Assembly: GCA_016776635.1 (NCBI GenBank)
Contig: JADHSZ010000004.1
Location: forward strand, 16,777 to 80,776
Length of the DNA stretch: 64,000 nt
Direction of reading: 5' to 3'
Source of the DNA: Alphaproteobacteria bacterium
Lineage (GTDB): Bacteria > Pseudomonadota > Alphaproteobacteria > UBA11136
Part shown: in pieces, positions 11,417-29,929 of the stretch
Position numbering within the stretch: position 1 is the stretch's first letter
Layout of the letters: every line of letters begins with the position of its first letter
The notes under the pieces: model-generated
Told to the model about the DNA's origin: nothing
Database searches by the model: none
The model's input: the letters and a program-made list of their open reading frames with translations, nothing else
Position numbers and translations under genes: made by a program

Positions 11417-11484
11417 GGAAAGTATTTTTCGGCGGTTGCTCCCGCCCCTTTCCTATCCGCCAGCCGCGCTATACTGCCCCCATG
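11417..11484 (+). promoter_or_regulatory. Hairpin-promoter module, copy 2
   Basis: GGGAAAGTATTTTTCGGCGGTTGCTCCCGCCCCTTTCCT...CGCGCTATACTGCCCCCATG is about 85% identical to copy 1. The ATG at 11482 starts the GNAT gene. Confidence 0.45.
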
Positions 11485-12802: not shown

Positions 12803-14275
12803 TCAGCCGGCGGAAGCGGCCCCTTCGCGTCCCGGATCATCCTCGAGAAGGCCGTTATCGTAAAGGCTCTGCAGGCTCTGTCCCACCAGGAAGATATCCT
12901 CACCGTTTGAGACAAGCTCGCCGATCACATCGCTGGCGGTCATGCGGTTTTCGTGGATGAGGCGGCCCATGCGGCCCATATAGGATATGCCGTTACAACT
13001 GTATTTCATGCCTCCGCCCTGCAGCTCGAAGCCCTCGTCCAGGGCCGAAAATTCCAGATCGTGGCGGAAGGAAACAACCTCGCTCGCCGGCACGCTTTCG
13101 GGCATGAACACGTCGATCATATCCTCCACCGCGGCGCGGAATTCCGCCACCGTCGTAAAGCGCGCCTCGGCGTAGATGCGATAGCCCAGCGGCCAGCGCG
13201 GCGAGGCCCGGGTCGGCGCCACCAGCTGTACCAGCCCCGAGAGCATATTGACCAAAAAGCCGCTGACGCAGGCGATGGTGGTGTGATCGCTCTGGAGTTT
13301 GGAAATCTTGCCTTCCTTGCCCGCGGCCACCAGCTTCTCGCGGCGTTCCTCGGCGCGGCCCGCCTTGGCCTTGGACATGAGCGCGTCCTTGCCCTGCATC
13401 ACCAACTCCACCCCCATCATTTCCTCGGGCGTAAAGGTGTCATACACGCGGTCGAGAATCTTGGTACTGAGGATGGAGAAACGCTGGGTGATGCAACAGT
13501 ATTTTTCATGCAGGGCCATGACTTTGCGCGTGAGGTCCAGGTTCTTCAACGGCGCCGCCGTGGTGGTCTGGGGCAGATGCCCGGTGACGCGGTAATGGTC
13601 CTCGATGAATTTGGGATAGTCGGGATTGTCCGCCGGGTCGGTGGCCCAATAGCAAAACCCGGTCTGGGCGGCATCACCAAACAGGTCCACCATCACCTGC
13701 AGCACGCCCCGCCACAGGGCCGCGTTTTCCGGGGTGTAAGGGTAATTGCCCTGGAACTTTTCCGCCGAGATGCCACAGAACCAACAGCCCACCGAACAGC
13801 CCTGGCTCAGCTCATAGGCGGCCACGGGGTGGACGATGGCCTCCGCGCTCACCCCCAGCTCGCTGGCCGAACGGCGGATCTGACGCTCGCGCCAGGCGTG
13901 AAAACGGGGGTTGGTTTTCTCGGTGCTGCCGGAATCGCGGATCAGGTCACGGTTGGCGATCATCTCCGCCAGATAGTCGTCCCAAGCCTGGGCCTTGGGC
14001 CATCGCGACATTTCATCGGTGAAGCGGTGTTTGGTGTGTTTGGTGTTCCACATGGGCTGCAGATCCTCGGGATCCACATCGATACCGTATTCCTCCGTCA
14101 CAACGGACGGATTCTTTACGTGCTCGCCCAGCTTGGCGCGAAACGTCGCGTCTGCCGAGAGCCGCTCCATGAACCGTTTCACATGGGCCAGCTCGCGCAG
14201 CTCTTCTTCACTGCGCGAGCTAAAGATGCGCTGATACTGTTTTGCCGAATCGCTTGGCTGATGCTGATACTTCAT
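12803..14275 (-). CDS. Radical SAM-like peptide maturase candidate (CSVGCWFCG = CX3CX2C) with an N-terminal Nif11-like domain
   Basis: 490 aa, immediately downstream of the three Nif11-leader precursors on the same strand. Cys triad with an aromatic residue before the third Cys. Residues about 20-75 (RELAHVKRFMERLSADATFRAKLGEH...VTEEYGIDVDPEDL) resemble a Nif11 fold. Confidence 0.6.
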   Translation of the reverse strand: MKYQHQPSDSAKQYQRIFSSRSEEELRELAHVKRFMERLSADATFRAKLGEHVKNPSVVTEEYGIDVDPEDLQPMWNTKHTKHRFTDEMSRWPKAQAWDDYLAEMIANRDLIRDSGSTEKTNPRFHAWRERQIRRSASELGVSAEAIVHPVAAYELSQGCSVGCWFCGISAEKFQGNYPYTPENAALWRGVLQVMVDLFGDAAQTGFCYWATDPADNPDYPKFIEDHYRVTGHLPQTTTAAPLKNLDLTRKVMALHEKYCCITQRFSILSTKILDRVYDTFTPEEMMGVELVMQGKDALMSKAKAGRAEERREKLVAAGKEGKISKLQSDHTTIACVSGFLVNMLSGLVQLVAPTRASPRWPLGYRIYAEARFTTVAEFRAAVEDMIDVFMPESVPASEVVSFRHDLEFSALDEGFELQGGGMKYSCNGISYMGRMGRLIHENRMTASDVIGELVSNGEDIFLVGQSLQSLYDNGLLEDDPGREGAASAG

Positions 14276-14305: not shown

Positions 14306-14701
14306 TTACGTGAGGACAACGGCACCCTCGGCGACGACGGCCACCGTGGTCGCCACTTCGGCCGCCTCCGCAGCCGTGGTTGCCACTTCCGCGGCTTCGG
14401 CGGCCGTGGTGGCTGCCGCCACAGCCTCGACGGCCTGGGTGGCCACAGCGACCTTGGTGGTCACGGCCACGCTGTGGTGACCCTTGCCGCCGGCGATGCT
14501 GTCCAGCTGGTCGTCGGAAAGCTCTTGCTTGGTCTGTTCCCGGACATAGGCCTTGGCCTCGTCGATGGAAATGTCATAGCCCTTGGCGGCGGCGAACTCC
14601 ACCACCGAGGCGAGCCCGGTGGAGCCGGATTTAAGCTCCCCCAACAGCTCCGCGTTGGATTTCAGATCGGATACGAAACGCTCGATATCTGCCTGACTCA
14701 T
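14306..14701 (-). CDS. RiPP precursor peptide 1: Nif11-type leader with Gly-Gly site, Cys-free Ala/Val/Thr/Glu-rich core
   Basis: Leader MSQADIERFVSDLKSNAELLGELKSGSTGLASVVEFAAAKGYDISIDEAKAY..LSDDQLDSIAGG. Core KGHHSVAVTTKVAVATQAVEAVAAATTAAEAAEVATTAAEAAEVATTVAVVAEGAVVLT. Confidence 0.8.
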   Translation of the reverse strand: MSQADIERFVSDLKSNAELLGELKSGSTGLASVVEFAAAKGYDISIDEAKAYVREQTKQELSDDQLDSIAGGKGHHSVAVTTKVAVATQAVEAVAAATTAAEAAEVATTAAEAAEVATTVAVVAEGAVVLT

Positions 14702-14748
14702 GGTGCTGTCTCCCTCTTTAAAAAATTTCCCGGTAACCCTTATGATCC

Positions 14749-15150
14749 CTACGTAGCGACAACAGCCAACGCGGCCTCAGCCACCACCTCCACCGTGGTC
14801 GCCACATCGGCGGCCTCCACGGTAACGGTTACGGCCTCGGCCGCCGCCGCCGCAGTGGATGCCGCAAAGGCCGCCTCTACCGCGGCCACGGCGACCTTGG
14901 TGCCCATGCTGTGATGATGGTGATGATGGCCCTTGCCGCCGGCGATGCTGTCCAGCTGGTCGTCGGAAAGCTCTTGCTTGGTCTGTTCCTGGATATAGGC
15001 CTTGGCTTCGTCGATGGAAATGTCATAGCCCTTGGCGGCGGCGAATTCCACCACCGAGGCGAGCCCGGTGGAGCTGTCCTTAAGCTCACCCAACAGTTCC
15101 TCGTTGGATTTTAGATCGGCGACGAAGCGTTCCACATCGGCTTGGCTCAT
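14749..15150 (-). CDS. RiPP precursor peptide 2: Nif11-type leader, core starts KGHHHHHH
   Basis: GG at residues 71-72. Core KGHHHHHHSMGTKVAVAAVEAAFAASTAAAAAEAVTVTVEAADVATTVEVVAEAALAVVAT. The leader is about 90% identical to precursor 1. Confidence 0.8.
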   Translation of the reverse strand: MSQADVERFVADLKSNEELLGELKDSSTGLASVVEFAAAKGYDISIDEAKAYIQEQTKQELSDDQLDSIAGGKGHHHHHHSMGTKVAVAAVEAAFAASTAAAAAEAVTVTVEAADVATTVEVVAEAALAVVAT

Positions 15151-15263
15151 GGTGCAATTCCCCTTTTCACATCTTCACAGGAATCCGCCGCCACACCCCC
15201 CATCCCCATCAGGTGGAAACGGCAGCCGCAACGGCGGAACAATCGGAGCAGCGAAGGCGAGCC

Positions 15264-15623
15264 TCAGGTGGCGACGATGACGCCCTCGGCCGCGACGGCC
15301 ACGGTGGTGGCCACTTCGGCGGCTTCCTCGGCCACAGTGGCGACGGTGGTGGCGTTAACGGCGGTTTGATTCGAACTCACATTGGTGGCGTGATGATGAT
15401 GGCCCTTGCCGCCGGCGATACCGTCCAGCTGGTCGTCGGAAAGTTCCTGCTTGGCCTGTTCCTGGATATAGGCCTTGGCCTCGTCGATGGAAATGTCATA
15501 GCCCTTGCCACCGGCGAATTCCACCACCGAAGCCAGCCCGGTGGAGCCGGATTTGAGTTCATCCATCATCCCCGTGTCGGAATTAAGATCGGACACGAAG
15601 CGCTCGATATCTGCCTGGCTCAT
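15264..15623 (-). CDS. RiPP precursor peptide 3: Nif11-type leader, core KGHHHHATNVSSNQTAVNATTVATVAEEAAEVATTVAVAAEGVIVAT
   Basis: Same leader family, ending GIAGG. Shorter core ending IVAT. Confidence 0.8.
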   Translation of the reverse strand: MSQADIERFVSDLNSDTGMMDELKSGSTGLASVVEFAGGKGYDISIDEAKAYIQEQAKQELSDDQLDGIAGGKGHHHHATNVSSNQTAVNATTVATVAEEAAEVATTVAVAAEGVIVAT

Positions 15624-15783: not shown

Positions 15784-17250
15784 GTGCCCTTCGGGGGATT
15801 CAGTAGATTTCGGCCAGTCTCAGCGGATTGCGGGGGAATGTTGTTTCAACGGTTCTTAGTAAGTGTGGGCGCCGGTCTTACCGGGCTGCTGCTGGGAACG
15901 GGCGGTTCCCAGGCGCAGACCCTGGCCGAGGCGCTGACCCAGACCTATCACAATAATCCGGCCATCGCCGCGGCGCGGGCCACGCTTCGCTCCACGGTGG
16001 AAACCCTGCCCGAGGCGCGGGCTGACTTCCTGCCCACCATCTCCTTCGCAGCCAAGGAGGGCCGCACCCGCATACGCCAATCCACCAAGGACGAGTTCGC
16101 CACCACCAACACCGCCTCGCGACTGGTGGAAACCGCCACAGACCGTTCCATTGCGCTGGATGTAACCCTCAACCTCTATGACGGCGGCCAGGTGATCGCC
16201 GCCATCAACAAGGCCGAGGCCAATATCGCGGTGGAAAAATACACCCTCGAAAGCACCGAACAGTCGACTCTGCTTTCGGCGGCCGAAGCCTATGCCGATG
16301 TAATCCTGAAGGAACACCTTCTCGATCTTTCCATCGAAAACGAGAACGACCTCCTGAAGCTCAAAGCCTCCGTGGACGATCTCTACGCCCACCAACAGGT
16401 CACCATCACCGATGTGGCCCAGGTGGACGCCAAGCTCGCCTCCGCCAGGGCGGACAGGGCCCAGGCCCGGGGCAGCCTCCGCGCGGCGCGGGGCCAGTTC
16501 AAATACGTCATCGGCACCGTACCTGCCGGCCTTGAAAAAGAGCCCACCCTGCCGAACCCGCCCCCCACCCTGGAAGAAGCCCTGGCCATCGCCGAAAAGA
16601 GGAGTCCTTCCATTCTCGCCGCCCAATACCAGATCAAGGCCGACGAATTCGATGTCCGCGCCAGAGAGGGAAAACTGCTTCCCAGCGTGGATTTCTATAA
16701 TGACCTGACCCGTGAATGGGACAGCTCCACCTACACTGGCAGCTCCGACTACAAGGAGCACAGCAAGGAGGACAGCTGGGAAATCGGCGTCGATGTCACG
16801 GTGCCCCTCTATAACGGCGGCGCCTACTATGCCGACATCCGCGAGGCCAAACAGACCGTGGCCTATGACAGGAACACCCTGATCGATACCCGCAACCAGA
16901 TCATCGAAGACGTGACCTCGGACTGGGCCACCCTCGAAGCCGACCACGCCAGCCTCAAAAGCAGCGAGGAACAGGTGAAGTCCGCCACCATCGCCGTCAA
17001 GGGATTCGAGCGCCAGTTCAAGAGCGGCACCAGCACCATGCAGGAATTGTTGAACGCCCAGAGCTCGCTCATCAGCGCCTACGAAGCCCAGTACGAAGCC
17101 GTCAACGACGTCTTCACTTCCACCGCGACCCTGCTCAACCATATGGGAACCTTTGGCGCCCGCGAACTGGGCCTGGCCGGTGAATTCTACAATCCCGACG
17201 CCTATCTGGAAAAATCACGCTACAGGTTTTACGGCACCGATATCGACTAA
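15784..17250 (+). CDS. TolC-family outer membrane efflux protein
   Basis: Signal peptide (probable start MLFQRF at 15838). Two repeats of the outer-membrane-efflux-protein helix/strand pattern. Divergent from the precursor operon. Confidence 0.8.
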   Translation: MPFGGFSRFRPVSADCGGMLFQRFLVSVGAGLTGLLLGTGGSQAQTLAEALTQTYHNNPAIAAARATLRSTVETLPEARADFLPTISFAAKEGRTRIRQSTKDEFATTNTASRLVETATDRSIALDVTLNLYDGGQVIAAINKAEANIAVEKYTLESTEQSTLLSAAEAYADVILKEHLLDLSIENENDLLKLKASVDDLYAHQQVTITDVAQVDAKLASARADRAQARGSLRAARGQFKYVIGTVPAGLEKEPTLPNPPPTLEEALAIAEKRSPSILAAQYQIKADEFDVRAREGKLLPSVDFYNDLTREWDSSTYTGSSDYKEHSKEDSWEIGVDVTVPLYNGGAYYADIREAKQTVAYDRNTLIDTRNQIIEDVTSDWATLEADHASLKSSEEQVKSATIAVKGFERQFKSGTSTMQELLNAQSSLISAYEAQYEAVNDVFTSTATLLNHMGTFGARELGLAGEFYNPDAYLEKSRYRFYGTDID

Positions 17251-17317: not shown

Positions 17318-19309
17318 ATGGATGTATGTCTGGTAAATATGCCCATTGCCGCCGTGCAACGGCCTTCCCTGGCGCTGGGGCTGCTCGGCGCGATGCTGAA
17401 ACGGGACGGCATTTCAACCAAGATTCTCTATCCCGACCTGTGGTTCGCCGAGTATTTCGGCCTGCGTTTCTATCGCAAGCTCTATCATACCCGGCCCGAG
17501 GACCTGCTCGCCGAATGGCTGTTCGCGGGCACCGCCTTCCCCGATTTTGAGCCCGACCACGACCGCTTCTTCGAGCGTCTGTTCGCGCGCAATGAAAAAA
17601 TATGCCACGAGGAAGGCCCTGAAGCCTTCAAGGCGATGATGCTGGAAAGCCGGGAAAAGGTGCCCGATTTCATCGACTGGGTGATCCGGGAAATACTCGC
17701 CCTCAGCCCCCGCATCGTCGGCTGCACCTCCATGTTCCAACAGCACGTGGCGACGCTGGCCCTGTTCCGCCGCCTCCGCGAAAGTGACCCCTCGGTGGTC
17801 ACCATGATGGGCGGACCCAATTGCGAGACGGTGATGGGCAAGACCACGCACCAGTCCTTTCCCTGGGTCGATTATCTGGTATCCGGCGAGGCCGATGCCT
17901 TCATCGCGCCGCTATGCCGTGAAATTCTCGATAAAGGACACGGGGCCGACCCCAGCCACCTCTCCGACGGCATCTTCACCCCGGCCCACCGCGAAACCGG
18001 CTATCCCGTCTCCGCCCATTCCCTTGACGGCCTGCCACGGGCCACCTCGGCCTCGCTGGGGGACCTGCCGCCGCCTGACTATGACGACTATTTTGAGGAG
18101 CTTTCCGGCAGCCTCTTCAAGAACTGGATCACACCCAATCTTCTGATTGAGGCCTCGCGGGGATGCTGGTGGGGGGAGAAACACCATTGCACCTTTTGCG
18201 GGCTCAACGGCGAGGGCATGGTCTACCGCTCGAAAACGGCCGATCAGGTGCATGAGGAAATCGACACCCTGGCGCGAAAATACAAGGTCACCAATTTCGA
18301 GGCCGTGGATAATATCCTGCGGATGGATTATTTCACCACCTTGCTGCCCCGTCTCGAAGACTTGCCCGAGGACTATCTTTTTTTCTTCGAGACCAAATCG
18401 AACCTCAAGCGCACACAGATCCAGCAATTACGGCGTTCCGGCGCGCGCTATATCCAGCCCGGCATCGAAAGCCTGGACAGCCGCGTCCTGAAACTCATAG
18501 ATAAGGGCGCCCAAGCCTGGCAGAACGTCCAGCTCTTGAAAAACTGCCGCCAAAACGGCATCTGGGTGTCTTGGAGCATGATCGTCGGCTTCCCCGGGGA
18601 GGAAGACGAATGGTACGCGAAGATGGCCGAGTTCATCCCTCTGCTGGCCCATCTCCAGCCCGGCGGCTTCATCGGCCTGCGTTACGATCGCTTCAGCCCC
18701 TACGTCAACGACCCGGAGGCCTTCGGTCTCGAACTCGCCCCATCGGAGCTCTACCCTTACGTCTATCCCCTGACGCAGGAAAAGATCGCCGACCAGGCTT
18801 ATTTCTTCGTCGAAAAGAACAAGCCCAACTTTTTCACCACCCTTGTTCAGACGCCCATACCCGGCCATCCCGGAATCGAGGCCGCCCGCGACGCCTTCCG
18901 CAAATGGCGCAGGGAATGGCCCGGCCCTGAACTCTGCGCCCGCGAGGTGGGGGGGGAGATTCATCTGCGCGACACCCGCCCCTGTGCGGTAACGGAACAG
19001 CACCGCATCACCGGAACCGACCGCCTAGCGCTGGAGGCCTGCGACACCGCCCCCACACAGGCCCGGCTTATGGAAACACTCGCGCAGGACGCTACCCCAC
19101 AAGACATCACCGACGCCCTGGCCCGGCTCATAGCCAATAAATTTATTTTCGAACTCGATGGCCGCCTGATCTCGCTGGTATTGAATGAGCCCATGGAATC
19201 CATGCCTTCCGACAGACTCCCGACCTTTGGCGCGGTGATGGCGCCGCAAGCCGCCCCACGGGATGACCCGAACGAGGATAACGAGGACCAGTCCCGAAAG
19301 GTGGCGTGA
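17318..19309 (+). CDS. B12-binding-domain radical SAM enzyme (RiPP maturation radical-SAM C-methyltransferase-like)
   Basis: Start MDVCLVNMPIAAVQRP after a GAGGGGGAGG RBS. N-terminal cobalamin-binding-like domain, Cys cluster RGCWWGEKHHCTFCG (CX7CX2C), long C-terminal extension. Confidence 0.7.
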   Translation: MDVCLVNMPIAAVQRPSLALGLLGAMLKRDGISTKILYPDLWFAEYFGLRFYRKLYHTRPEDLLAEWLFAGTAFPDFEPDHDRFFERLFARNEKICHEEGPEAFKAMMLESREKVPDFIDWVIREILALSPRIVGCTSMFQQHVATLALFRRLRESDPSVVTMMGGPNCETVMGKTTHQSFPWVDYLVSGEADAFIAPLCREILDKGHGADPSHLSDGIFTPAHRETGYPVSAHSLDGLPRATSASLGDLPPPDYDDYFEELSGSLFKNWITPNLLIEASRGCWWGEKHHCTFCGLNGEGMVYRSKTADQVHEEIDTLARKYKVTNFEAVDNILRMDYFTTLLPRLEDLPEDYLFFFETKSNLKRTQIQQLRRSGARYIQPGIESLDSRVLKLIDKGAQAWQNVQLLKNCRQNGIWVSWSMIVGFPGEEDEWYAKMAEFIPLLAHLQPGGFIGLRYDRFSPYVNDPEAFGLELAPSELYPYVYPLTQEKIADQAYFFVEKNKPNFFTTLVQTPIPGHPGIEAARDAFRKWRREWPGPELCAREVGGEIHLRDTRPCAVTEQHRITGTDRLALEACDTAPTQARLMETLAQDATPQDITDALARLIANKFIFELDGRLISLVLNEPMESMPSDRLPTFGAVMAPQAAPRDDPNEDNEDQSRKVA

Positions 19310-19315
19310 CCGGCA

Positions 19316-20482
19316 ATGATCGTCCATCGGGAAACAGCCCGTTTCGATACGCCTCTGCCCCTTGAATGCGGAAAGTTTCTGCCCGAATTCGAGCTCGCCT
19401 ATGAAAGCTACGGCAAGCTCAACAACAAGCGGGACAACGCCGTCCTCATCTGCCACGGCCTCACGGCCACCCAGAACGCCGCCGGCATTCCCAAGGGCGA
19501 GAACGGAAAAGCCGGAAACGAAAAAGAGGCCAAGCCGGGCTGGTGGGACACCGCCATCGGCCCCGGAAAGCCCATCGATACAAAACGTTTTTACGTGATC
19601 TGCGCTAATGTTCTGGGGAGTTTCGGTGGCTCCACCAGTCCCGCCAGCATCAATCCCGAAACCGGAAAACCCTACGGCATGGCCTTTCCCGTAGTCACCA
19701 TCACCGACATGGTAGACGCCCAGAAACATCTGGCCGACCGGCTCGGCATCGAAAAATTTCATGCCATTGCCGGCGGCTGCATGGGCGGGTTCCAGGTGCT
19801 GGCCTGGATGTCGCGCTACCCCGGCTGTCTTTCAAGAGCCGTGGTCATCAGCACCACGCCCCGGGTCTCGGCCCATACCATCGCCCTGTGGTCGGTGCTG
19901 CGCGAGGCCATCCGTTCGGACCCGGCCTGGAACGGTGGCGATTATTACGGCGGGTCCGCCCCCGACAAGGGCATGGGGCTAGCCGCCGCCTTCGGCGCCC
20001 TGTTCTGGATGAACCGCCAGACCATGGACCGAAAATTCGGCCTCAAGCCGCTCGACCACAGGGAACCGGCTTACGGTTTGGAACCCGAATTCGAGGTGGA
20101 GGCCTTCTTGAGCCAGGTAAACAAGAACGCCGCGGGAAAGATCGACGCCAACGCCCTGATTTATCTCACCCGGGCCATGGATTATTTCAACATGACCCGC
20201 GGCGGTGTGGAACTGGCGTCTCTTTTTGCGGGCGCGCGCTACCGCGCCCTGCTGGTGAGTTATAAATCCGACTGGCGCTATCCGCCACAAGAGGCCGAGG
20301 AAATCCACGAAGCGTTGAAAGCGGCAGACATAGACTCACACCACGAAATTCTTGAGAGCCATTTCGGCCATGGCGCCTTCATCTACGATTTCGAGGGCCT
20401 GGGGCCGGTATTAAAGGAATTTCTCCACAGTCCGGCTCACAGCAAACCCTCCAGCCCAAAGACATCTGCGGGCAAAAAATAA
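19316..20482 (+). CDS. metX: Homoserine O-acetyltransferase MetX
   Basis: MetX alpha/beta-hydrolase signature throughout, with an inserted loop GIPKGENGKAGNEKEAKPGWWDT. Starts 6 nt after the radical-SAM stop. Confidence 0.85.
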   Translation: MIVHRETARFDTPLPLECGKFLPEFELAYESYGKLNNKRDNAVLICHGLTATQNAAGIPKGENGKAGNEKEAKPGWWDTAIGPGKPIDTKRFYVICANVLGSFGGSTSPASINPETGKPYGMAFPVVTITDMVDAQKHLADRLGIEKFHAIAGGCMGGFQVLAWMSRYPGCLSRAVVISTTPRVSAHTIALWSVLREAIRSDPAWNGGDYYGGSAPDKGMGLAAAFGALFWMNRQTMDRKFGLKPLDHREPAYGLEPEFEVEAFLSQVNKNAAGKIDANALIYLTRAMDYFNMTRGGVELASLFAGARYRALLVSYKSDWRYPPQEAEEIHEALKAADIDSHHEILESHFGHGAFIYDFEGLGPVLKEFLHSPAHSKPSSPKTSAGKK

Positions 20483-22026
20483 TCCAGCGACAACAGCGGA
20501 CACCCCACCAGACCGGTGAGGAAATCATGGCTGGAAAGGGCGATGAATCCGGCCTCCCGCGCCAATTCCCGGTACCGCCCAGCCTCCATCAGATTTTGCC
20601 GGGAAAACCCGTGGCTGGCGTCGAGATAGGCCATGAGATGGCTCCCCACATGGGCCGCCGCTGCCTCGGGCGCCACCGTATGGGCCTCAATCACCAGCAT
20701 GCCGTGGCGCCGGGTCCAGGGCAGCCAACTCTGAAAATGCTCCACCAGATTCTGCGCCATATAACCGGGCTCAATCAGATCACCCTCTTCATCCACGAAG
20801 ACGCCCGGCGGACCGGTCTCCCGCGAGCGTGTGGCGGCGACGTCACGAGGTGGTTGATAACGCCGGTTGTGGATCACCGACTTGCTCACATGCAGGGCCT
20901 GGCGGGCGTCAATCCCGTGACCGGCCAGGGCTTCCCCCAGCCCATCGGGATCGCCGATATCCCCGGCCACCACCAGATGGGGAATCCCCGCCGCCTCAAG
21001 GGCCGCCTGGGCGGTCTTCCGCGCCACCGGGTTGTATTCCGCCCCCACCATGACCAGAGGAAACTCCGAGAGCGCCTTGCCGCGCCGGGTTTTAGCGGCG
21101 ATGGCGTGAAACAGTTCCTTCAACAGCGTGCCGTCGCCACAGCCGGTATCGATCACATAACCGGGCTGCGCCGCCAGCGGCTCGCGGTCGAACAGGGGCA
21201 GGGCCAGTTCCATGAAGGGCCCGGCGCAGAGACGCGTGAACACGGCCCCGCTGGCCTCGATATCCAGCGCCCGGTCGAGATGGCTCTCAACGCCGCCTTC
21301 GTCCCTGTCGAGAACAGGCGACATGTCACCGAACAGCATCTCCGGCACACGGGAAAAGGTAGGAAGATAGGAAAGAGGCAGGAAATACTGCGCCGCCATG
21401 CCTGCCGCCATCTCACCTTCGGGGGTGAGAGCATAATCGCCACTCCCTTCCTCGGCCCATCCCTGCGCCGCCAGCGCCTGCCAGCAAAGGTGCGGCAGCG
21501 CCACTTTATCCTGTGGGTCATTGCCCGCGAGCATGCGCAAGGCCACCGCCACCAGCGGACCCGTCACATGCAGCCGCACCCGCTCGCCCATGACGTCGCC
21601 GTTAGCCGGTAGATGGTGGAGCGCCGCCTCCCACGCTTCGCAGGCATCCTCATCCGCAGTTCCAGCAAGCAGGGCCATGGCGGCGGCGAGCAACTCCGGA
21701 AAACCGTCATAGGCGGAGAGAAAAGGCAGCCATGCCCACCCATCTTCGCTCAAGGATACCCGCGCCACCGCGCCGCTGCCGCTTATCCGCACCAACCCCT
21801 GGGAGGCCAACAGCCTGGCGGCAAGATGAAGATAGCCGCGCCGTGCCCCATACCGCGCCGCCAGATCATCCACTGAAAGGGGCGCCCCGGTCCCGGAAAG
21901 CTCCGCCAGGATACCTTTTTCCGCCAGGGCGCAGACCGTGGTTCCCAAGGCTATGCCGTCGATGTTGAAACAGACCTTGCGCCAGACCGCACGCCCCAGC
22001 GCCGCCTTGTCCGTATCCACGGTCAT
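20437..22026 (-). CDS. Large class I SAM-dependent methyltransferase with N-terminal winged-helix/dimerisation-like domain
   Basis: 529 aa. Motif I VIDTGCGDGTLLKEL around residue 280. The N-terminal region resembles O-methyltransferase dimerisation domains. Adjacent to the NHLP export genes. Confidence 0.6.
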   Translation of the reverse strand: MTVDTDKAALGRAVWRKVCFNIDGIALGTTVCALAEKGILAELSGTGAPLSVDDLAARYGARRGYLHLAARLLASQGLVRISGSGAVARVSLSEDGWAWLPFLSAYDGFPELLAAAMALLAGTADEDACEAWEAALHHLPANGDVMGERVRLHVTGPLVAVALRMLAGNDPQDKVALPHLCWQALAAQGWAEEGSGDYALTPEGEMAAGMAAQYFLPLSYLPTFSRVPEMLFGDMSPVLDRDEGGVESHLDRALDIEASGAVFTRLCAGPFMELALPLFDREPLAAQPGYVIDTGCGDGTLLKELFHAIAAKTRRGKALSEFPLVMVGAEYNPVARKTAQAALEAAGIPHLVVAGDIGDPDGLGEALAGHGIDARQALHVSKSVIHNRRYQPPRDVAATRSRETGPPGVFVDEEGDLIEPGYMAQNLVEHFQSWLPWTRRHGMLVIEAHTVAPEAAAAHVGSHLMAYLDASHGFSRQNLMEAGRYRELAREAGFIALSSHDFLTGLVGCPLLSLDYFLPADVFGLEGLL

Positions 22027-22075: not shown

Positions 22076-25000
22076 TCAGGCCACCTGACGCAGCGCCATC
22101 TCGGAGAAATAACCGCCCTGATCCATCAGTTGCTGATAATTCCCGGCCTCGATGACCCGGCCCTTGTCGATCACATAGATCATGTCGGCGTCGATGATGG
22201 TGCTGAGCCTGTGGGCGATGACAATGCGGGTGCTGTTGAGGGTATTGAGTCCCTGGCGCACGATTTCCTGGGTCTCGTTGTCGAGAGCGCTGGTGGCTTC
22301 GTCGAAAATGAGAATACGCGGCCGATGCACCACCGCGCGGGCGATCATCAAACGCTGGCGCTGACCGCCGGAAAGGGTCGAGGCCCCTTCGCCGAGATAG
22401 GTCTCCATGCCCATGGGCATGGCCTCGATATCCTTGTCGAGTCCAGCCAGCCGCGCCGCTTCCCAGGCATCGTCATGGGAAAGATTGGCGCCGGCGGTAA
22501 TATTGTGGAACACCGAGCCCGACAACAGGCGACCGTTTTGCAGAACCACACCGAAATTGTGGCGCATGGCCCGCTTATCGAGATTGGAAATTTCCTTGTC
22601 GTCAAGAAACACCGAGCCCGCTTCGGGCTCATCGAAGCCAAGGATCAACCGCACCACCGAAGACTTACCCGCCCCCGACGGCCCCACCAGGGCCACGAAC
22701 TGGCCGGGCTTGGCCTCGAAGGTCATGCCGTCGAGAACCAGGGGGCTGTCCTCCTCGTAGCGGAACTGCACATCATGGATCGCCAGCCCCCCCAACACCT
22801 CGCCCGGATCCTCGGAGCCTTCCTCGCTTTCCTGCTTCGCCTCCAGGATCGGCGCCACCCGCTCGTAGAGGGGCTTGATGTTGACAAGCTGGATCAGAAC
22901 GCCGGTGATGCCGAAGACGGCGCCAAGGAACTGCCCAAAGGCCACGTGGAAGGAAACAAATTTCGCGACGGGCATTACCTTTTGCAGCTTTCCGCCGGTG
23001 ATGTCGGCCCAGTCGGTGGGCGCGTGGTAAAACGCCAGCAGCTCATGCCCCTGCCAACCGATGATGAAAATGATCCCGAACACGGCGAAGTAACTAAAGC
23101 CCGACTTGAACACGATGAGCGCGTTGTTCAGGTTCTGCATATAAAAGCTGGTGGACTGGAGTTGGGCATAGGGCATGGCCCATTGGGCAAACGCATTGGG
23201 TTCGCTTCCGGTCACCCGCAGCTTGGACACCGCGCCCAGCAATTGCATGACAATTCCCTGAATCCGTCCGCCCAGGAACAGCATCTCGCGGCTGCGCGAC
23301 AGCACCTTACGGCCAAGGACGTAGGTAATGACGCTGTAAATGGCGCAGATAATCACGGTAATGCCCGCCAGCCGCCAGTTGTAATAGGTCATGAGGCCAA
23401 GACTGAAGAGCCCCACCACGCCGTGCATGAGCGACGTCACCACCGATCCCGACAACAGGCTGCGCATGGCATCCACACCCTGGGCGCGGTTCGCCAGATC
23501 ACCCACCGTATAATCACGGAAGAACGAGGCCGGCAGTTTCAACAGCCGGTCCCATACCGCCGCCTGCACGTCATGGGTCATTCTGCCCTCGATGCGCAGC
23601 ATGGAAAGCGACTGCACCAGCGAGAAGGCCACCATGGAAAATCCGGCAAGAATCAAGGCGCCCACCATGACGGTGAGTTGATCCAACTGCGCCTCGGGAA
23701 TTATGGGGTCCATGATCCAGCCGATGATAATGGGCGTGGCCAGCGATAAAAGACCGGCCACCAGGATCATGGCCACCACCAGGCCCACATCCCGGCCACT
23801 GCCGCGCAGACCAAACATGAGAATATCCGAAGGACGCATCTTTCCGGGCTGGAAGGGACGGTAGAAATAATAAGCGGATTCCGAGAGGGTGGCAGCCAGT
23901 TCGCGTGTCACCTTTGTTCTGGTCCCCGCCACGGGGTCCACAAGTTCGTATTCCCGCGCCGAGACCGGCAACAGGGCGCAGGGTTTCTTGTCCTCGCCGA
24001 CAAAGGCGAGAATAGGCCCCTGGTCCACCCGCCACCATTCCCCTTCCAAAATCACGGTGCGAATAAAGAAACCGGACTGGCGGGCAAGAATCTTCAAGGG
24101 GTCCTTGGCCTTGGCGAGGGGTTGGCTCAATTTCTCCGGCGGCGCCACTTCGATCCCCGCCCTATGGGCCACCGTCTGCGCGGCGGCCACAAGAGGGTCC
24201 GAGGACAGGTCCAGAACCCCCTCCGATCCGGATTCTAGAACCCCGGCCAGCGCCCGCAGGGAACCCGTGAAGCTGCGTTTGGAAAAGATGCGCTTTTGGA
24301 CAAAACGGCTGGCGAAGGATTTTGAGCGGTCCTCAACGGTCTTGGCGAAAACACCGAGGACGCCCGTATGGAGGCAATCCAGATCGCCCATGAGGTTGCC
24401 CTTGCCCAGCCACTGTTCCGTGATGCACGCCTCGAAGCTGCCCTCACCGTCACAGGTCATCCAGGAAGCATTGGTGAGCGGATAAAAGACCTCGCCGTCG
24501 CCGCTCACTGGGCATTTTCCGAATAACGAGAGAGTCCCAGCCGGCGCCGCGACCCAAACCATATTATGGGCGGCCTCGATGCTGGCCCCGGCGGGAACCG
24601 GGGTGGTGGTGTCCGCTGACAACAGAACGGCGTTACCCGGTGGCCGCCCTGGCGCCACACCCTGTAACAGCGGGCCGATCCAGCTTTCCACAAGGGCGGC
24701 TATCTGCGGCTTGGCTTTTTTATCTCCTGCCAGTCCCCGCAGATCATGGCGGGTAGTCTCGGCCAATCTTGCGCCATTGGTGGGTACCGCCACGAGACTA
24801 CCCGGGGTGGAGGTGTCACCAATCCCGAAGACCGCGCCCCCGGCCTCGATCCGCGTTACATGAGTGCGAATGCCGTGAATCCCCTGCGAGGCTTCGGTGG
24901 GACCGTCAACCACATAGAACACGTCCACGCCACCCTGGAGAATCAGCCACAGGCGGTCCGGCCTGGAGAGAAGAAAGGGCGTATTGCTGCCCATGGCCTT

Positions 25001-25147
25001 GGCTTCTCCTTCCACGCCAAGTTTCCCGGCCAGGCCCGCCGCCGGCTCGGCGTTGACGGGTTCCGACTGCGGCTGCGGCTGCGGAGCTTTCGAGGCCGCC
25101 GCCTGCGCCAGCCCGCCCTTGCCAAAAAGATCGTCGAGACCGCTCAT
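22076..25147 (-). CDS. NHLP/Nif11-type bacteriocin export ABC transporter, permease/ATPase subunit (no peptidase domain)
   Basis: 1023 aa. Roughly 470-aa N-terminal soluble region, 6-TM ABC exporter domain, Walker A GPSGAGKS, LSGGQRQR signature, Walker B ILIFDEATSALD. Confidence 0.8.
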   Translation of the reverse strand: MSGLDDLFGKGGLAQAAASKAPQPQPQSEPVNAEPAAGLAGKLGVEGEAKAMGSNTPFLLSRPDRLWLILQGGVDVFYVVDGPTEASQGIHGIRTHVTRIEAGGAVFGIGDTSTPGSLVAVPTNGARLAETTRHDLRGLAGDKKAKPQIAALVESWIGPLLQGVAPGRPPGNAVLLSADTTTPVPAGASIEAAHNMVWVAAPAGTLSLFGKCPVSGDGEVFYPLTNASWMTCDGEGSFEACITEQWLGKGNLMGDLDCLHTGVLGVFAKTVEDRSKSFASRFVQKRIFSKRSFTGSLRALAGVLESGSEGVLDLSSDPLVAAAQTVAHRAGIEVAPPEKLSQPLAKAKDPLKILARQSGFFIRTVILEGEWWRVDQGPILAFVGEDKKPCALLPVSAREYELVDPVAGTRTKVTRELAATLSESAYYFYRPFQPGKMRPSDILMFGLRGSGRDVGLVVAMILVAGLLSLATPIIIGWIMDPIIPEAQLDQLTVMVGALILAGFSMVAFSLVQSLSMLRIEGRMTHDVQAAVWDRLLKLPASFFRDYTVGDLANRAQGVDAMRSLLSGSVVTSLMHGVVGLFSLGLMTYYNWRLAGITVIICAIYSVITYVLGRKVLSRSREMLFLGGRIQGIVMQLLGAVSKLRVTGSEPNAFAQWAMPYAQLQSTSFYMQNLNNALIVFKSGFSYFAVFGIIFIIGWQGHELLAFYHAPTDWADITGGKLQKVMPVAKFVSFHVAFGQFLGAVFGITGVLIQLVNIKPLYERVAPILEAKQESEEGSEDPGEVLGGLAIHDVQFRYEEDSPLVLDGMTFEAKPGQFVALVGPSGAGKSSVVRLILGFDEPEAGSVFLDDKEISNLDKRAMRHNFGVVLQNGRLLSGSVFHNITAGANLSHDDAWEAARLAGLDKDIEAMPMGMETYLGEGASTLSGGQRQRLMIARAVVHRPRILIFDEATSALDNETQEIVRQGLNTLNSTRIVIAHRLSTIIDADMIYVIDKGRVIEAGNYQQLMDQGGYFSEMALRQVA

Positions 25148-27375
25148 TGCATCGCCACCAGTTCTGAATAGCGGCCCTTATTGGCCATCAGCTGATCGTG
25201 GTTCCCGCGCTCGATAATCTTGCCCTGCTCGAGGACGATGATCTCGTCACAGTCGCGGATGGTGCTGAGCCTGTGGGCAACGATGATGCAGGTGCATCCC
25301 CGCCGCCGCAGATTATCGTCGATATGTTTCTCGGTCAGCGGGTCAAGGGCCGAGGTGGCTTCATCAAGAACCAGCACCGACGGCTCCTGAGCCAGGGCGC
25401 GGGCGATTTCAAGCCGCTGTGACTGGCCGCCGCTGAAATTGGCGTTACCTTCGGCGACCCGGCTTTCATAGCCCCCGGCGCGCGAAGCGATGATCTGATG
25501 CACATCGGCATCCATGGCCGCGCGCACGATGATCTCGTTGGGAATGGTGCTGTCCCACATGGTCAGGTTTTCGCGGATAGTGCCCTCGAACAGAAAAATC
25601 TCCTGGTCCACCGCCCCTACCGATGACGTGAAAACGGCGCGAGGCACCTTATTGATAGGCTGCCCGTCGTAAAGGACCTCGCCGCCCGTGGGCTGATAAA
25701 GCCCGAGAATAAGCCTGGAAAGGGTGCTTTTTCCGCTGCCCGACCCTCCCACCAGGGCCACGCGCTGGCCGGGTGCCACATCCAGATTAAAATCTTCGAT
25801 CAACGGAGGGTCCAACGGGTTATATCCGAAGCTCACATCACGCAGTTGCAGCGCGCCGGAAAGTCTGGCGATGGGCGTCTTTTCCCCCTCGCCGTTTTCG
25901 GGAGCCTCGTCATCGGCATCTTCGTCACCGTCATCGCTCTGAAATACGCTGTCCAGTTCGTATCTTTGCACATCGCTCAGCCGGTTGAGGTCGCCGCCAA
26001 TTTCCTGCAGCTGCGATCCGAAGCCCACGAACTGGTGAATGGGTCCGGTGAAATGGACCATCAGGCTCTGGAACGCAATCAGCCCGCCAATGGTGAGCTC
26101 GCCGCCGACGATCAACAAGCCGCCGACGCCGAGAATCAGCCCCGTATTGAGGTGGTTGAGCGCGCCGGGAACGCTGGAGAGCTTCTGCATGGTGACGCCC
26201 AGCTGTTGTTGGGCGTTGATGCCGTTGGTCTGGTAGCCGGACCAGATATTAAAGAAATCACTTTCGGTGCCGGTGGCTTTCAGGGTTTCAATGGCCTGCA
26301 GCCCCGCCATGGAGGCCCCCACCGTCTTGGCCTGCTGGTTGAGAAGATGGCTGTTGGTGTCCTTGATCCGGCGCCGCACCACACCCACCGCCAACAGGTC
26401 GAAGCAGGCCAGCCCCACGGCGATCAGCGTCAGGGGGACGCTGTAGATAGCCATCACGGTGAGGTAAAAGACGATCATCAGGCTGTTGGCGAGCGTGCTC
26501 GACAGCGGCCCCGATAACAGCGCCGCCACGCGATGACAGGACTGCACCCGCGAGGCCACGTCGCCCACGTAACGCTGGGTATAGAACACCACCGGCACCC
26601 GCAGCACATGCCAGAAGAACTGGCCGGCGGAAGATATGGCGAGCTTGATCTGGACCCGCAGCAAATAGCGTTGCTGAAGATAGGTCAGCACCGAACTGAA
26701 TATAGCCGTTAAGGCCAGCCCCACCAGGATCGGCAACAGCCAGTCGTTATCGCCCCGGGTCAGCACATTATCGATGAAGTTCTTAAGGAAGGCCGGCATC
26801 AACAGCCCCGGCACCACCAGCATCAGCGTCACCAGAACCACAAATGCCAGTACTCCCTGGGAACCGTGCAACCGCGAGGCCAGGGCCTTGAACAGGCTTT
26901 GCCGCTCACCGCCTTTCTGGAAATCCGGACCCGGCTCCATTTCCAGCATGATCCCGGTAAAGCCGTCGCTGAATTCCTGGCGGGTGATGCGGCGCGGCCC
27001 GGAGGCCGGGTCATTAACACACACATGCGTCTTGTCGGCGCCTTCCACCACCAGGAAGTGATTGAAATTCCAGAAAACGATAAAAGGAGTCTGGCTGGCC
27101 AGGGCCTCATCGGCTTCGGCCTTGGACCCCTTGGCGTCGAGGCCATAACCGCGGGCCGCCTTGACCACGTTGCCGGCCTTGGCCCCGTCGCGGGAGACGC
27201 CAGTGGCCACGCGCAGCTCTTCCAGCGGCACCCAGCGCCCGTAATAGGCCAACATAATGGCCAGCGCCGCAGCACCGCACTCCACGGCCTCCATCTGCAG
27301 GACCGTGGGCGTGTGCACCCGTTTCATGGGGCCGGACCAGGCCGCCTTCTCCCCTGTCTTCCCCCCTGGCGCCAC
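25144..27375 (-). CDS. NHLP/Nif11-type bacteriocin export ABC transporter with N-terminal C39 peptidase domain (Gly-Gly leader cleaving)
   Basis: 743 aa. C39 motif QMEAVECGAAALAIMLAYYG, transmembrane domain, Walker A GGSGSGKST, LSGGQSQR, LVLDEATSALD. Overlaps the upstream ABC gene by 4 nt. Confidence 0.85.
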   Translation of the reverse strand: MAPGGKTGEKAAWSGPMKRVHTPTVLQMEAVECGAAALAIMLAYYGRWVPLEELRVATGVSRDGAKAGNVVKAARGYGLDAKGSKAEADEALASQTPFIVFWNFNHFLVVEGADKTHVCVNDPASGPRRITRQEFSDGFTGIMLEMEPGPDFQKGGERQSLFKALASRLHGSQGVLAFVVLVTLMLVVPGLLMPAFLKNFIDNVLTRGDNDWLLPILVGLALTAIFSSVLTYLQQRYLLRVQIKLAISSAGQFFWHVLRVPVVFYTQRYVGDVASRVQSCHRVAALLSGPLSSTLANSLMIVFYLTVMAIYSVPLTLIAVGLACFDLLAVGVVRRRIKDTNSHLLNQQAKTVGASMAGLQAIETLKATGTESDFFNIWSGYQTNGINAQQQLGVTMQKLSSVPGALNHLNTGLILGVGGLLIVGGELTIGGLIAFQSLMVHFTGPIHQFVGFGSQLQEIGGDLNRLSDVQRYELDSVFQSDDGDEDADDEAPENGEGEKTPIARLSGALQLRDVSFGYNPLDPPLIEDFNLDVAPGQRVALVGGSGSGKSTLSRLILGLYQPTGGEVLYDGQPINKVPRAVFTSSVGAVDQEIFLFEGTIRENLTMWDSTIPNEIIVRAAMDADVHQIIASRAGGYESRVAEGNANFSGGQSQRLEIARALAQEPSVLVLDEATSALDPLTEKHIDDNLRRRGCTCIIVAHRLSTIRDCDEIIVLEQGKIIERGNHDQLMANKGRYSELVAMQ

Positions 27376-27378
27376 CGG

Positions 27379-28632
27379 TCAGCCTCCCGTGACCCAGGTC
27401 TTGAATATGGGAACCACAAGATTTATGGGACGTTCCTCGCGCACCGTCACCGAGGCAAAGGCCGTATCGCCGGTGGTAACCTTCAGAGGCGGACCCTTGG
27501 AAGACGACCATTTAAGCCCGCTGAAGGTCTTGGGATCCTTCTTCAGCGAGATCACCACCTTGATGGGGGCCCCGGCGCCCATCATTTTCTCCACCAGCGC
27601 CTCGTTACCCAAAACCGCCATCAGCCCGGCCTGGGTTTCCGGCAGGTCGCTCACCGTATCCACCTTGCCCCTGATGCTGCCGTAAAGGTCACGCTCTATG
27701 GAGGAGGGCGCCACCTCGGCGGACATGCCGGGATGGATTTTCTTGCCCTTGCCGATCTCAAAATAGGTGACCAGCTCCAAGTCTTTGCCGGACTTCTCGA
27801 TGACGGCCACTTGGCCATCGGTCTTCACAAGCGCGCCGAGCTTGACGTCGATCTCGGTGACGCGGCCGTCCACGGGGCTGAAGATTTCCTTTTCCGTCTC
27901 CAGGGAGGTCTTGACCTCCTCAAGACTGTTTTCGGCGGTGATGACCTGTTGTTCCAGTTCGGACAGGGTGCGGCGCTGTTGGTTCTCGAATTCCACCTGG
28001 GCGGAGCGCGCCTCGGCGATTTTGTTGCGGCTGTCGCGGATGGACTGTTCGGTGGCAAAGATATCGCTGCGCGTCTGCTCCAGCTGTTTGCGGGTGATAT
28101 ATCCTTTTGCCAGCTCCTCCTGCTGGGCTTCGTAGAGCGGCTGCAGGAAATCCAGGTGATTCTTATCGGCCGTGATCTTGGCATTGAGGGCTGTGATGGT
28201 ATCCCGCATATTGGCCTTGCGGCTGCTCACATCCTTCACCGAGAACGCCGACTGGCGGTCATACTGGCCCTGCAAATTATTCAGGGTGCGGTGGGCATCC
28301 CGCAGCTGGGCCTCGCGGCTGGGCAGGGACAACACCGCGAGGCGGGCGCCCTTCTTCACCATCTGGCCCACCTTCACGTCGACTGAATCGATACGCCCGG
28401 CGGCGGGCGCAATCACACTGTAGACGACCCCGCCACGGTCGAGAATAACACCCATGCCCTTGACCTGGACCGGCACGCTCCCCACCACGCCCCAGACGGT
28501 GACGATAGCAACGATGACGAACATCACGGTAAGGCTGAGCCAGCCAATGGGTGAGGTAAGCCTGAGCGCCGTATCCAGCTGCTCCGGACTGCGGAGCTTC
28601 CTGATCGCTTCGTCGCGGAAAAGGTCCGACAT
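27379..28632 (-). CDS. HlyD-family secretion (membrane fusion) protein of the NHLP export system
   Basis: 417 aa. N-terminal transmembrane anchor, long coiled coil, beta-barrel/lipoyl-like domains. Confidence 0.8.
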   Translation of the reverse strand: MSDLFRDEAIRKLRSPEQLDTALRLTSPIGWLSLTVMFVIVAIVTVWGVVGSVPVQVKGMGVILDRGGVVYSVIAPAAGRIDSVDVKVGQMVKKGARLAVLSLPSREAQLRDAHRTLNNLQGQYDRQSAFSVKDVSSRKANMRDTITALNAKITADKNHLDFLQPLYEAQQEELAKGYITRKQLEQTRSDIFATEQSIRDSRNKIAEARSAQVEFENQQRRTLSELEQQVITAENSLEEVKTSLETEKEIFSPVDGRVTEIDVKLGALVKTDGQVAVIEKSGKDLELVTYFEIGKGKKIHPGMSAEVAPSSIERDLYGSIRGKVDTVSDLPETQAGLMAVLGNEALVEKMMGAGAPIKVVISLKKDPKTFSGLKWSSSKGPPLKVTTGDTAFASVTVREERPINLVVPIFKTWVTGG

Positions 28633-28765: not shown

Positions 28766-29929
28766 TCAGGGGATTTCCTTGCCGTCGGGTCCGTACCATC
28801 CCTTGTAGATTTCGCCACAGCCATAATAGTCGATATTGGGCGGCACGTAATCAGCCCCTTCATCATCCCGGTGAAGAAGGCGGAGTTCGAAACTGATGCG
28901 AGTGGTGTCGCCGCTATGAACGGCACTGGCGTGAAGATGGTGGGTAGCAAAACAGAACACGTCTCCCACCTCCAGGGGCGGGGCCACCACGCGGTCCCGG
29001 TTCACCGTCTCGCGGATGGCGGGCGCCAGCCCCAGCCCCACATATTGCCGCCAGATATCGTAGCCGAGCGTAGCGTTTTCGATGCTTTTGAGGTAGTAGC
29101 GGGGAAACACCTGCAGCGTGGCATCGGCGGCAATGGGCCAGACCGGCCCCCATAAATTGATCTGGTGCTGGGGCGAGCCGTACCAGGTGTCGCGGTGGGC
29201 CGGCAGAAAGCCCGAAACGGTGGTTCGATAAAACCCCGGCGCTGGGCTTCCCTCGGGAAAGACCAGTCGGAATCCCGGCCATTCATAGATCACCCGCGCC
29301 GGATCCATTCCCATCTGCTCCACGAGGGTGGTCATAATGGGATGAATTCGCTCGTCTTCAAGAAACGCCTCATAGGTTTCCTTCACGATCCGGGTATAGG
29401 TTTCGAGGTCCAGCTTGCCGTGGGCCTCGCGGGGGGCATGGGGATAGAAAGCGCGGACCAGAACCTCCCGGATTACCGCCACCAGGTCAGCAATGGCGGG
29501 AACCTGGCGTGCCGCAATGCTCTCGCCCTCCAGGATTCCCCGTCGGTCCAGCGTAAAGCCGTCCTCGTAATCCAGAACCTGCCCTCCCGCGGCGCAGTCC
29601 CGGTCCATGGGCACCGGCATCGGGATATCGCCGCGGTCCCGGCGTTCCAAAAGCTCCCGGCGATGGCGCAGATCGCGCTCGCTGAGATCGTTCTCGATTT
29701 TCCGTTCCAGATAGTCGCTCAACTCGGCGCCGGTGAAATGAAAGCCATGGGCGTTGGCGAAGGCGGCGATGGCATCGGTGGCATTGGGGGAAAAGTCAAT
29801 CTGGGACAATTCATCCATGAGGGTAGGCGTGGTCATGACAGCGCCAGTAAAGGACTCGATGCTCCCCCTGCTGATCCAGGCCAGAAAGTCCCGGCCCTGT
29901 TCAAGGTCGTTTGCATTGGTTGATTCCAT
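28766..29929 (-). CDS. Nif11-like N-terminal domain fused to a putative Fe(II)/2-oxoglutarate-dependent oxygenase-like (PhyH/cupin-like) domain
   Basis: N-terminus DFLAWISRG..TLMDEL..PNATDAIAAFANAHGFHFTGAELSDY matches the Nif11 pattern. C-terminal half carries an HxD...H arrangement (LPAHRDTWYG ... CFATHHLHASAVH). Confidence 0.45.
   Translation of the reverse strand: MESTNANDLEQGRDFLAWISRGSIESFTGAVMTTPTLMDELSQIDFSPNATDAIAAFANAHGFHFTGAELSDYLERKIENDLSERDLRHRRELLERRDRGDIPMPVPMDRDCAAGGQVLDYEDGFTLDRRGILEGESIAARQVPAIADLVAVIREVLVRAFYPHAPREAHGKLDLETYTRIVKETYEAFLEDERIHPIMTTLVEQMGMDPARVIYEWPGFRLVFPEGSPAPGFYRTTVSGFLPAHRDTWYGSPQHQINLWGPVWPIAADATLQVFPRYYLKSIENATLGYDIWRQYVGLGLAPAIRETVNRDRVVAPPLEVGDVFCFATHHLHASAVHSGDTTRISFELRLLHRDDEGADYVPPNIDYYGCGEIYKGWYGPDGKEIP

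Follow-up and report, generated by a model that had tools for sequence, protein, structure and literature searches.

Leader peptides of the Nif11 type (PF07862/TIGR03798, for instance prochlorosin ProcA) act as export and cleavage signals for exporters of the C39-peptidase type (PMC2887384), and structured NHLP and Nif11 leaders are read through protein-protein contacts (PMC12455567, PMC12537861). For the tailoring enzymes of peptides that are made on the ribosome and modified post-translationally (RiPPs), several such protein-protein modes of recognising long, folded leaders have been published (PMC12455567, PMC12537861, PMC10858898). We analysed a stretch of 64,000 nucleotides from an alphaproteobacterium of the UBA11136 lineage (assembly GCA_016776635.1, contig JADHSZ010000004.1, positions 16,777 to 80,776; hereafter the window), which contains a RiPP gene cluster. 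One gene of this cluster, at 28766..29929 on the minus strand, encodes a 387-residue protein in which a Nif11 domain is fused to a PhyH-type Fe(II)/2-oxoglutarate (2OG) oxygenase. An earlier note, made from the letters of the sequence, had singled out this open reading frame (ORF) and that of a 490-aa radical-SAM protein at 12803-14275 (minus strand), both of which it placed correctly, and had proposed that the two enzymes begin with a copy of the leader fold rather than with a RiPP recognition element (RRE).

Leader-type folds are already known from RiPP enzymes. The 'LigA-like domain' group of ECOD takes in the leaders of the Nif11, nitrile hydratase (NHase) alpha, ComX, DurB and Frankia_peptide types and, with them, LigA, the C-terminal domain of OphMA and the N-terminal domain of TglI (PMC12353581). 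PDB entry 9cgw contains the LigA-type chain of a borosin precursor along with an alpha-N-methyltransferase. The LigA-like domains of OphMA, TglI and NHase alpha (PMC12353581) share with the window oxygenase a leader-type three-helix fold in or on a RiPP enzyme, and differ from it in enzyme class, which here is a 2OG oxygenase, and in domain family, which here is Nif11 proper. In OphMA the domain is part of a self-modifying enzyme-precursor fusion, whereas the oxygenase is no precursor and separate precursors exist. The earlier note was not aware of any description of enzymes that carry a leader fold; this general idea is in fact partly published (PMC12353581), and what appears to be new is the natural Nif11-oxygenase fusion. 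No description of a Nif11 domain in fusion with a stand-alone tailoring enzyme that has separate precursors turned up in the literature searched, which left subscription journals mostly uncovered, so that its absence there is no proof.

Fusions of a leader to a tailoring enzyme have also been engineered, reportedly in the LctM 'ConFusion', in leader-fused LynD and in a leader-fused microviridin ligase, and such constructs activate lanthipeptide synthetases and cyanobactin heterocyclases. As in the oxygenase, the leader is covalently joined to a RiPP tailoring enzyme. The engineered proteins are said to be laboratory constructs in which short, unstructured leaders are attached to enzymes that already possess leader-binding sites, whereas the oxygenase fusion is natural, folded and old, and involves an enzyme for which the relatives examined are non-RiPP proteins.

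A Nif11 domain precedes the catalytic domain of the oxygenase

Profile comparisons located the Nif11 domain proper at residues ~20-88 of the oxygenase (29666..29872, minus strand). Searched alone, the window protein gave significant matches that lie below the curated thresholds, with E values of 1.4e-3 / 2.2e-4 against Pfam PF07862 (19.3-21.9 bits; gathering score 23.8) and of 3.6e-5 against TIGR03798 over residues 22-88 (23.9 bits; cut-off 32.3). The relationship was clear at the level of the family: 23 of 25 homologue N-termini scanned singly matched Pfam Nif11 (best 1e-7), 21 of the 25 matched TIGR03798, and a profile of the family's N-terminal region matched PDB entry 9zn4, a 'Nif11 domain-containing protein', with E 2e-11. 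In hhalign, the same region aligned with a profile built on 12 leaders out of four such clusters (97.8%, E 7.6e-13), pairing leader residues 2-67 with oxygenase residues 20-88 and ending ~5 residues before the leader GG, and with generic Nif11 profiles (99.3-99.6%), of which an independent one of 73 short Nif11 peptides gave 99.3% and E 2.4e-20. When all 692 ORFs of the window were searched with the hidden Markov model (HMM) of these 73 peptides, those retrieved at E <= 1 were three precursors, the oxygenase (E 5.8e-16) and the radical-SAM protein, an epimerase (E 0.014). By these comparisons residues ~20-88 are a genuine Nif11 domain; the reading of the first ~90 residues as a Nif11 leader fold, which the earlier note had proposed together with the HMM search by which to check it, is thereby borne out.

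The whole N-terminal region (29585-29929, minus strand) consists of the Nif11 domain, flanking helices and a linker. A model computed with AlphaFold2 (AF2) placed helices at residues 6-33, 35-41, 50-60, 67-81 and 84-98. A helix extension peculiar to the family (residues 6-19) comes before the domain, and helix 84-98 comes after it, with an ordered linker from there to about residue 115. The oxygenase domain has the profile, the helix order and the A..GF.F..eEL motif of Nif11 leaders such as ProcA and 9zn4, and the homology reaches nearly to their cleavage region. It differs from them in its extra N-terminal helix, with a nearly invariant Phe15, and in what lies at the other end. Where the leaders have LSDDQLDSIAGG the oxygenase reads LSERDLRHRRELLE, the family consensus is likewise without GG, and in place of the GG or GA and short core of TIGR03798 precursors a 270-aa oxygenase domain follows. 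Judged from its sequence, the N-terminal domain is a leader homologue and is not itself a precursor.

The relationship to the leaders of the same cluster is visible to profiles only, a BLASTP comparison of the oxygenase N-terminus with the cluster's own precursor giving E 0.18 in the wrong register. When scored with the enzyme-domain profile, the cluster's own leaders reached ~40 bits, the same as generic Nif11 peptides; because they score no better than unrelated peptides, the fusion is taken to be old, and a recent copy of a cognate leader was ruled out on the same ground. The N-terminal profile also matched TAL effectors in the PDB (E to 2e-20), matches which sum weak repeats, contain no single significant stretch and were set aside as an artefact. 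By eye, residues ~43-72 (window ~29714-29803), with the motif DLxPExVAAFA...G, resemble the TAL pattern LTPxQVVAIAS..G.

The remainder of the protein, residues ~116-387 (28769..29584, minus strand), is a catalytic double-stranded beta-helix domain. Since H245-x-D247, H333 and R344 are invariant in 38 sequences, we assigned the enzyme to the PhyH-type Fe(II)/2OG oxygenases, whose HxD...H facial triad, 2OG-binding Arg and double-stranded beta-helix fold are all present. Catalytic fold and metal/2OG ligands are common to the oxygenase and to PtlH, AndA, EasH, AsqJ and human PhyH, although these members of the PhyH family act on small-molecule substrates, have no Nif11 domain and are 11-15% identical to the window protein. 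Hydroxylation of core residues would be the default expectation for its chemistry, from family and cluster.

AF2 modelled the oxygenase as a single body, with a mean predicted local distance difference test score (pLDDT) of 91.6, a predicted template modelling score (pTM) of 0.88 and a linker pLDDT of ~91-93. A rigid two-domain body with an ordered linker would suit a leader that acts in cis. The fused Nif11 domain would then fill, within the same polypeptide, the surface that receives the precursor leader, and the oxygenase would be constitutively on and leader-independent, or else auto-inhibited until the domain is displaced. Auto-inhibition, like a different mechanism of recognition or assembly, had been suggested in the earlier note. 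A constitutively active oxygenase could act even when the leader is occupied by another maturase or by the exporter, and many pathway enzymes compete for one leader; in addition, the homology covers nearly the whole leader, and engineered leader-enzyme fusions that activate their enzymes are established. What speaks against an action in cis is that the closest domain-less relatives examined are non-RiPP proteins, with no sign of an ancestral leader-binding or allosteric site, and we consider this explanation unlikely.

Distribution and genomic context of the fusion

A search of 5.8 billion proteins yielded 43 homologues of the oxygenase (clusters at 90% identity), a rare family. About 35 of these are full-length (~390 aa) and align from their first residues, and many carry a precomputed PF07862 match; the survey of homologues that the earlier note had suggested thus found the N-terminal domain kept down to 31% identity. 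Among 1.84 billion proteins, the fusion family has ~20 representatives at 50% identity, the fusion being present also in P0165, P0169, P0171, P0172, P0175, P0183 and P0193. No other type of enzyme with a fused Nif11 domain was seen among the best 150 of 312 matches to the N-terminal profile in this 1.84-billion-protein library, the remaining long matches being to the same oxygenase family, to tandem Nif11 repeats or to spurious repeat proteins. The tandem Nif11 proteins, which occur in metagenomes, have two to four copies and reach 572 aa (P0199, P0218, P0252, P0174).

The N-terminal region might in principle be an artefact of annotation or assembly, with a precursor run into the oxygenase gene, or an export signal for the double-glycine exporter. 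Transporters of this type use Nif11 leaders as signals for export and cleavage (PMC2887384), and the genes lie side by side. Yet the oxygenase has no GG site, the identical protein is encoded on 16 independent contigs (identical cluster proteins on 12-16 metagenomic contigs), the fusion is conserved to 31% identity with a continuous, ordered linker, and a good Shine-Dalgarno sequence, GGAGG, lies 6 nt 5' of the first ATG. Moreover, 2OG oxygenases require the cytoplasmic co-substrates Fe(II) and 2OG, which counts against export. We rejected both readings on these grounds as highly improbable.

Homologues 33-45% identical to the window oxygenase recur in clusters of the same type, with a Nif11 precursor, a PoyD epimerase, a C-methyltransferase and an NHLP-type exporter; such clusters were found in the window and in loci L009, L011, L013, L014, L015, L016 and L017. 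The fusion gene and the cluster are on the same contig in L013, and in three cases the longest contigs of epimerase and oxygenase homologues agree in length, which is consistent with shared contigs. In L009, L011 and L017 the neighbours of the oxygenase gene encode HlyD, the C39-ABC exporter with the second ABC subunit, the methyltransferase and the hydrolase; in L016 it adjoins the exporter in divergent orientation; and in L014 and L015 it stands at the opposite end of the cluster, on the epimerase side. The nearest relatives without the N-terminal domain (P0036-P0043) are 280-311 aa long, and the two that were examined lie in a sulfotransferase/P450 context (P0036) and in a polysaccharide cluster (P0040), neither of them RiPP. 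In the cases examined, therefore, the Nif11 domain and membership of a RiPP cluster coincide, which is consistent with gain of the domain on recruitment.

The three loci L009, L011 and L017 contain further genes that are absent from the window cluster. A 310-aa protein without a Pfam match (9065-9997 in L009) ends 4 bp before the oxygenase start, and its translation, inspected by eye with no alignment run, showed no likeness to the oxygenase. Between the oxygenase and HlyD genes there are a 178-aa Asp_Arg_Hydrox protein and a 246-aa protein.

Since the gene adjoins exporter genes in most loci (upstream of HlyD on the same strand in the window, divergent in L016), we also weighed a piggy-back form of mimicry. 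The Nif11 domain would imitate a leader and be held by the leader site of the epimerase or of the C39-peptidase exporter, assembling a maturation or export complex. The L-12 and L-7 positions of the leader LxxxxL motif are kept in the window protein (LSERDL versus LSDDQL), and work cited in PMC10858898 is reported to make the epimerase OspD dependent on leader helices alpha1/alpha2. These LxxxxL positions are, however, not conserved over the oxygenase family, the GG motif is missing, and the enzyme domain does not share the conserved polar and charged positions of the leaders (e.g. R8, D12, K14). The gene is at the other cluster end in L014 and L015, and mimicry would block, not help, a partner that is monomeric and has one site. 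Mimicry of this kind appears quite improbable.

A putative docking module for Nif11-leader precursors

The explanation that we favour is that a PhyH-type oxygenase gained a folded Nif11 domain by an old gene fusion, and that this domain serves as a pathway-specific docking module, which would give the oxygenase access to the Nif11-leader precursor or to the maturation complex. Residues of the Ala/Val/Thr/Glu-rich core could then be oxidised by the enzyme, most likely by hydroxylation, and this core would also be epimerised and C-methylated. We put at about even the chance that the Nif11 domain is a docking module by which an oxygenase of the small-molecule type was recruited into a Nif11-leader pathway.

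Docking would most likely take the form of direct protein-protein pairing, between the Nif11 domain of the enzyme and the structured Nif11 leader that the substrate carries. The analogies are the pairing of LigA-like domains within the alpha chain of nitrile hydratase and the LigA-type domains of borosins that dock on the methyltransferase. Direct pairing is favoured because the examined domain-less relatives are non-RiPP proteins, so that the domain probably met no leader site already in place; because LigA-like domains are known docking modules (duplicated in NHase alpha; OphMA, TglI; PMC12353581; PDB 9cgw); and because Nif11 domains often occur in tandem.

Several observations weigh against the docking explanation. 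The residues common to the leaders and the enzyme domain are mostly conserved hydrophobic positions, with 24% identity in the profile alignment, and the leaders are nearly invariant between clusters while the enzyme domains diverge, with no co-variation of the kind that a specific leader contact would call for. The enzyme-domain profile rates the cluster's own leaders no higher, at ~40 bits, than generic Nif11 peptides. The high pTM of the AF2 model suggests that the Nif11 domain packs against the catalytic domain of the same protein, an arrangement that would fit an intramolecular role as a lid, in activation or in auto-inhibition equally well. Finally, no RiPP genes are visible within 10 kb of one family member, P0025, the sole exception among the loci examined, and the comparison with domain-less proteins comprises two relatives only.

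The N-terminus of the radical-SAM epimerase

The 490-aa protein (12803..14275, minus strand) is a PoyD-family radical-SAM RiPP amino-acid epimerase, with CxxxCxxC at residue ~160 and a match to TIGR04517 over residues 29-478 (E 4.4e-159, 530 bits; cut-off 325). Like PoyD, OspD and AerD, the proteusin epimerases of TIGR04517, it is a full-length member that includes the N-terminal domain, and it differs from them in that its substrates have leaders of the Nif11 and not of the NHLP type. We found at least 1872 homologues, and the 120 listed span 83-100% of the query, nearly all of them at least 95%.

The first 155 residues (13811..14275, minus strand) form a family-conserved domain that AF2 modelled as all-helical (pLDDT 91.6). 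The earlier note had seen in the first ~80 residues a Nif11 segment similar to that of the oxygenase, and had named the lack of a significant profile match as what would refute it. Searches of Pfam and NCBIfam gave no Nif11 match for the epimerase, the sole leader-type matches being to two models of the NHLP clan at E ~0.05, and the claim could not be upheld in that form. What is left is a weakly Nif11/NHLP-like stretch at residues ~29-77 (14045-14191, minus strand): hhalign comparisons of the epimerase N-terminus with the leaders and with a broad Nif11 profile gave 67-84% and E 7e-6 to 5e-5, in a constant register that places these residues on Nif11 helices 1-3 plus the G-x-D/F motif. The scores were 32-35, as against 10-12 for reversed controls and a mean of 16-17.5 (maximum 23-26) for shuffles in blocks of eight columns.

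Compared directly with the oxygenase N-terminal profile, the epimerase N-terminus gave 7.9% as a single sequence and 14% as a family in hhalign, no better than column shuffles, and a relation between the N-termini of the two enzymes is not demonstrable from their sequences. A PDB search with the epimerase family returned no sequence relative. The domain is an integral and highly conserved part of the PoyD family model: K33, R34, E37, D42, F45, R46, P93, F125, W128, R129, R131, Q132, R135 and E139, 14 residues between positions 33 and 139, are invariant in 64 sequences. The profile resemblance is suggestive of, but does not prove, a remote relationship to Nif11 within the LigA-like fold group, which would be a property of all PoyD enzymes and not specific to this cluster. 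Convergent patterning of the helix-turn-helix kind at residues 29-77, in a PoyD-specific helical domain with another role, would explain the same resemblance with no homology, and we regard the chances of this as evenly balanced.

An RRE presumably serves the purpose that we propose here, access of a tailoring enzyme to its precursor, with a winged helix-turn-helix that includes a three-stranded beta-sheet, as against the all-helical N-termini of both window enzymes. At neither N-terminus did we obtain a match to a PqqD-like RRE at E <= 1, and both regions have pLDDT values above 90 as all-helical structures in AF2. The proposal of a leader fold rather than an RRE accordingly holds for the oxygenase, which has the leader homologue and no PqqD-like RRE at its N-terminus. 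It does not carry over to the epimerase, since in proteusin epimerases the RRE is described as C-terminal (PMC7470986; PMC10858898). OspD is also said, in work cited in PMC10858898, to be able to act without the leader.

The biosynthetic cluster in the window

Three genes encode Nif11-leader precursors, of 119 aa (15264..15623, minus strand; GG cleavage motif at residues 71-72), 133 aa (14749..15150, minus strand) and 131 aa (14306..14701, minus strand; PF07862 E 2.3e-7, TIGR03798 E 2.1e-9). We compared 12 precursors, from the window (14306-15623, minus strand) and from L013 (8275-9955), L014 (8144-9927) and L015 (9490-9840). Their leaders are near-identical between clusters. In most of them the core starts right after GG with K-G and one to eight histidines (e.g. 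KGHHHHHH), followed by an Ala/Val/Thr/Glu-rich stretch and a short hydrophobic end, for example VVVLT or VVVAT. Proteusin/NHLP-associated types are represented by the epimerase, the C-methyltransferase and the exporter; the precursors are not proteusins by their leaders, for which Nif11 is matched (E 2e-9) and NHLP is not (TIGR03793 E 0.061, over the C-terminal 16 residues only).

The export genes lie next to that of the oxygenase. An HlyD-like NHLP bacteriocin secretion protein (27379..28632, minus strand; TIGR03794 E 3.8e-88) is encoded on the strand of the oxygenase gene, 133 bp downstream of it, followed by a C39-peptidase ABC exporter, the leader-cleaving transporter (25144..27375, minus strand; TIGR03796, 1032 bits), and by a second ABC exporter subunit of 1023 aa (22076..25147, minus strand). 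The latter matches TIGR03797 over residues 317-1022 (E 1.3e-251), and its 316-residue N-terminal extension outside this model has no Pfam match on record. A TolC-like outer-membrane efflux protein (15838..17250, plus strand; PF02321 OEP) is encoded further along.

Additional candidate tailoring enzymes are a B12-type radical-SAM RiPP C-methyltransferase of 663 aa (17318..19309, plus strand; TIGR03975 E 4.4e-212) and a 529-aa methyltransferase of the AprA_N / Methyltransf_36 type (20437..22026, minus strand), which has precomputed Pfam matches and no NCBIfam match. Between them lies the gene for a 388-aa MetX-like alpha/beta-hydrolase acyltransferase (19316..20482, plus strand; NF001209 E 2e-118). 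This gene, of the homoserine O-acetyltransferase type, is kept in all related loci as that of an Abhydrolase_1 protein, and we know of no RiPP maturase of MetX type.

A GNAT-like protein of 325 aa (11482..12459, plus strand), in which Acetyltransf_1 is faint in the window and clear in L013 and L014, has counterparts of ~300 aa beside the epimerase in every related cluster. With a Lys as the first core residue, this recalls the fatty-acylating GNATs of selidamide pathways (PMC8784127), and by this analogy a lipopeptide may be the product. Immediately downstream of the epimerase gene, a predicted membrane protein of 90 aa (12496-12768, minus strand; 75 aa in L014) with an acidic, Gly/Asp/Ser-rich tail could be an immunity or accessory protein. 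At the oxygenase end, ~4 kb past the cluster and beyond Wzy_C, methyltransferase and PMT_2 genes, there is a phage-type integrase (DUF6538 + Phage_integrase; ~33972-35603, plus strand, mapped from L001 4327-5958), and the region around it may be part of an integrated element.

Significance of the fusion

A conserved, natural fusion of the leader fold to a tailoring enzyme provides a clean handle on leader recognition, and the docking hypothesis is cleanly testable. If the fusion were only a structural add-on, it would amount to a modest point of annotation; if the fold is a portable address module, it could aim arbitrary enzymes at Nif11-tagged peptides. A wider reading, which we think doubtful, is that leader folds and their receptors are homologous, the oxygenase reading the leader by Nif11-Nif11 pairing and the PoyD-type epimerases (the characterised PoyD, OspD and AerD included) using a cryptic, strongly diverged N-terminal copy alike. 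Were this true, RiPP enzymes would have, besides the RRE, a second and independent means of reading long structured leaders, one of general reach in evolution, and nature would supply a tag with which unrelated enzymes could be directed to Nif11-tagged peptides. In addition, the fusion is a marker for a family of heavily modified peptides of marine alphaproteobacteria, in whose clusters epimerisation, C-methylation, oxidation and possibly acylation are encoded.

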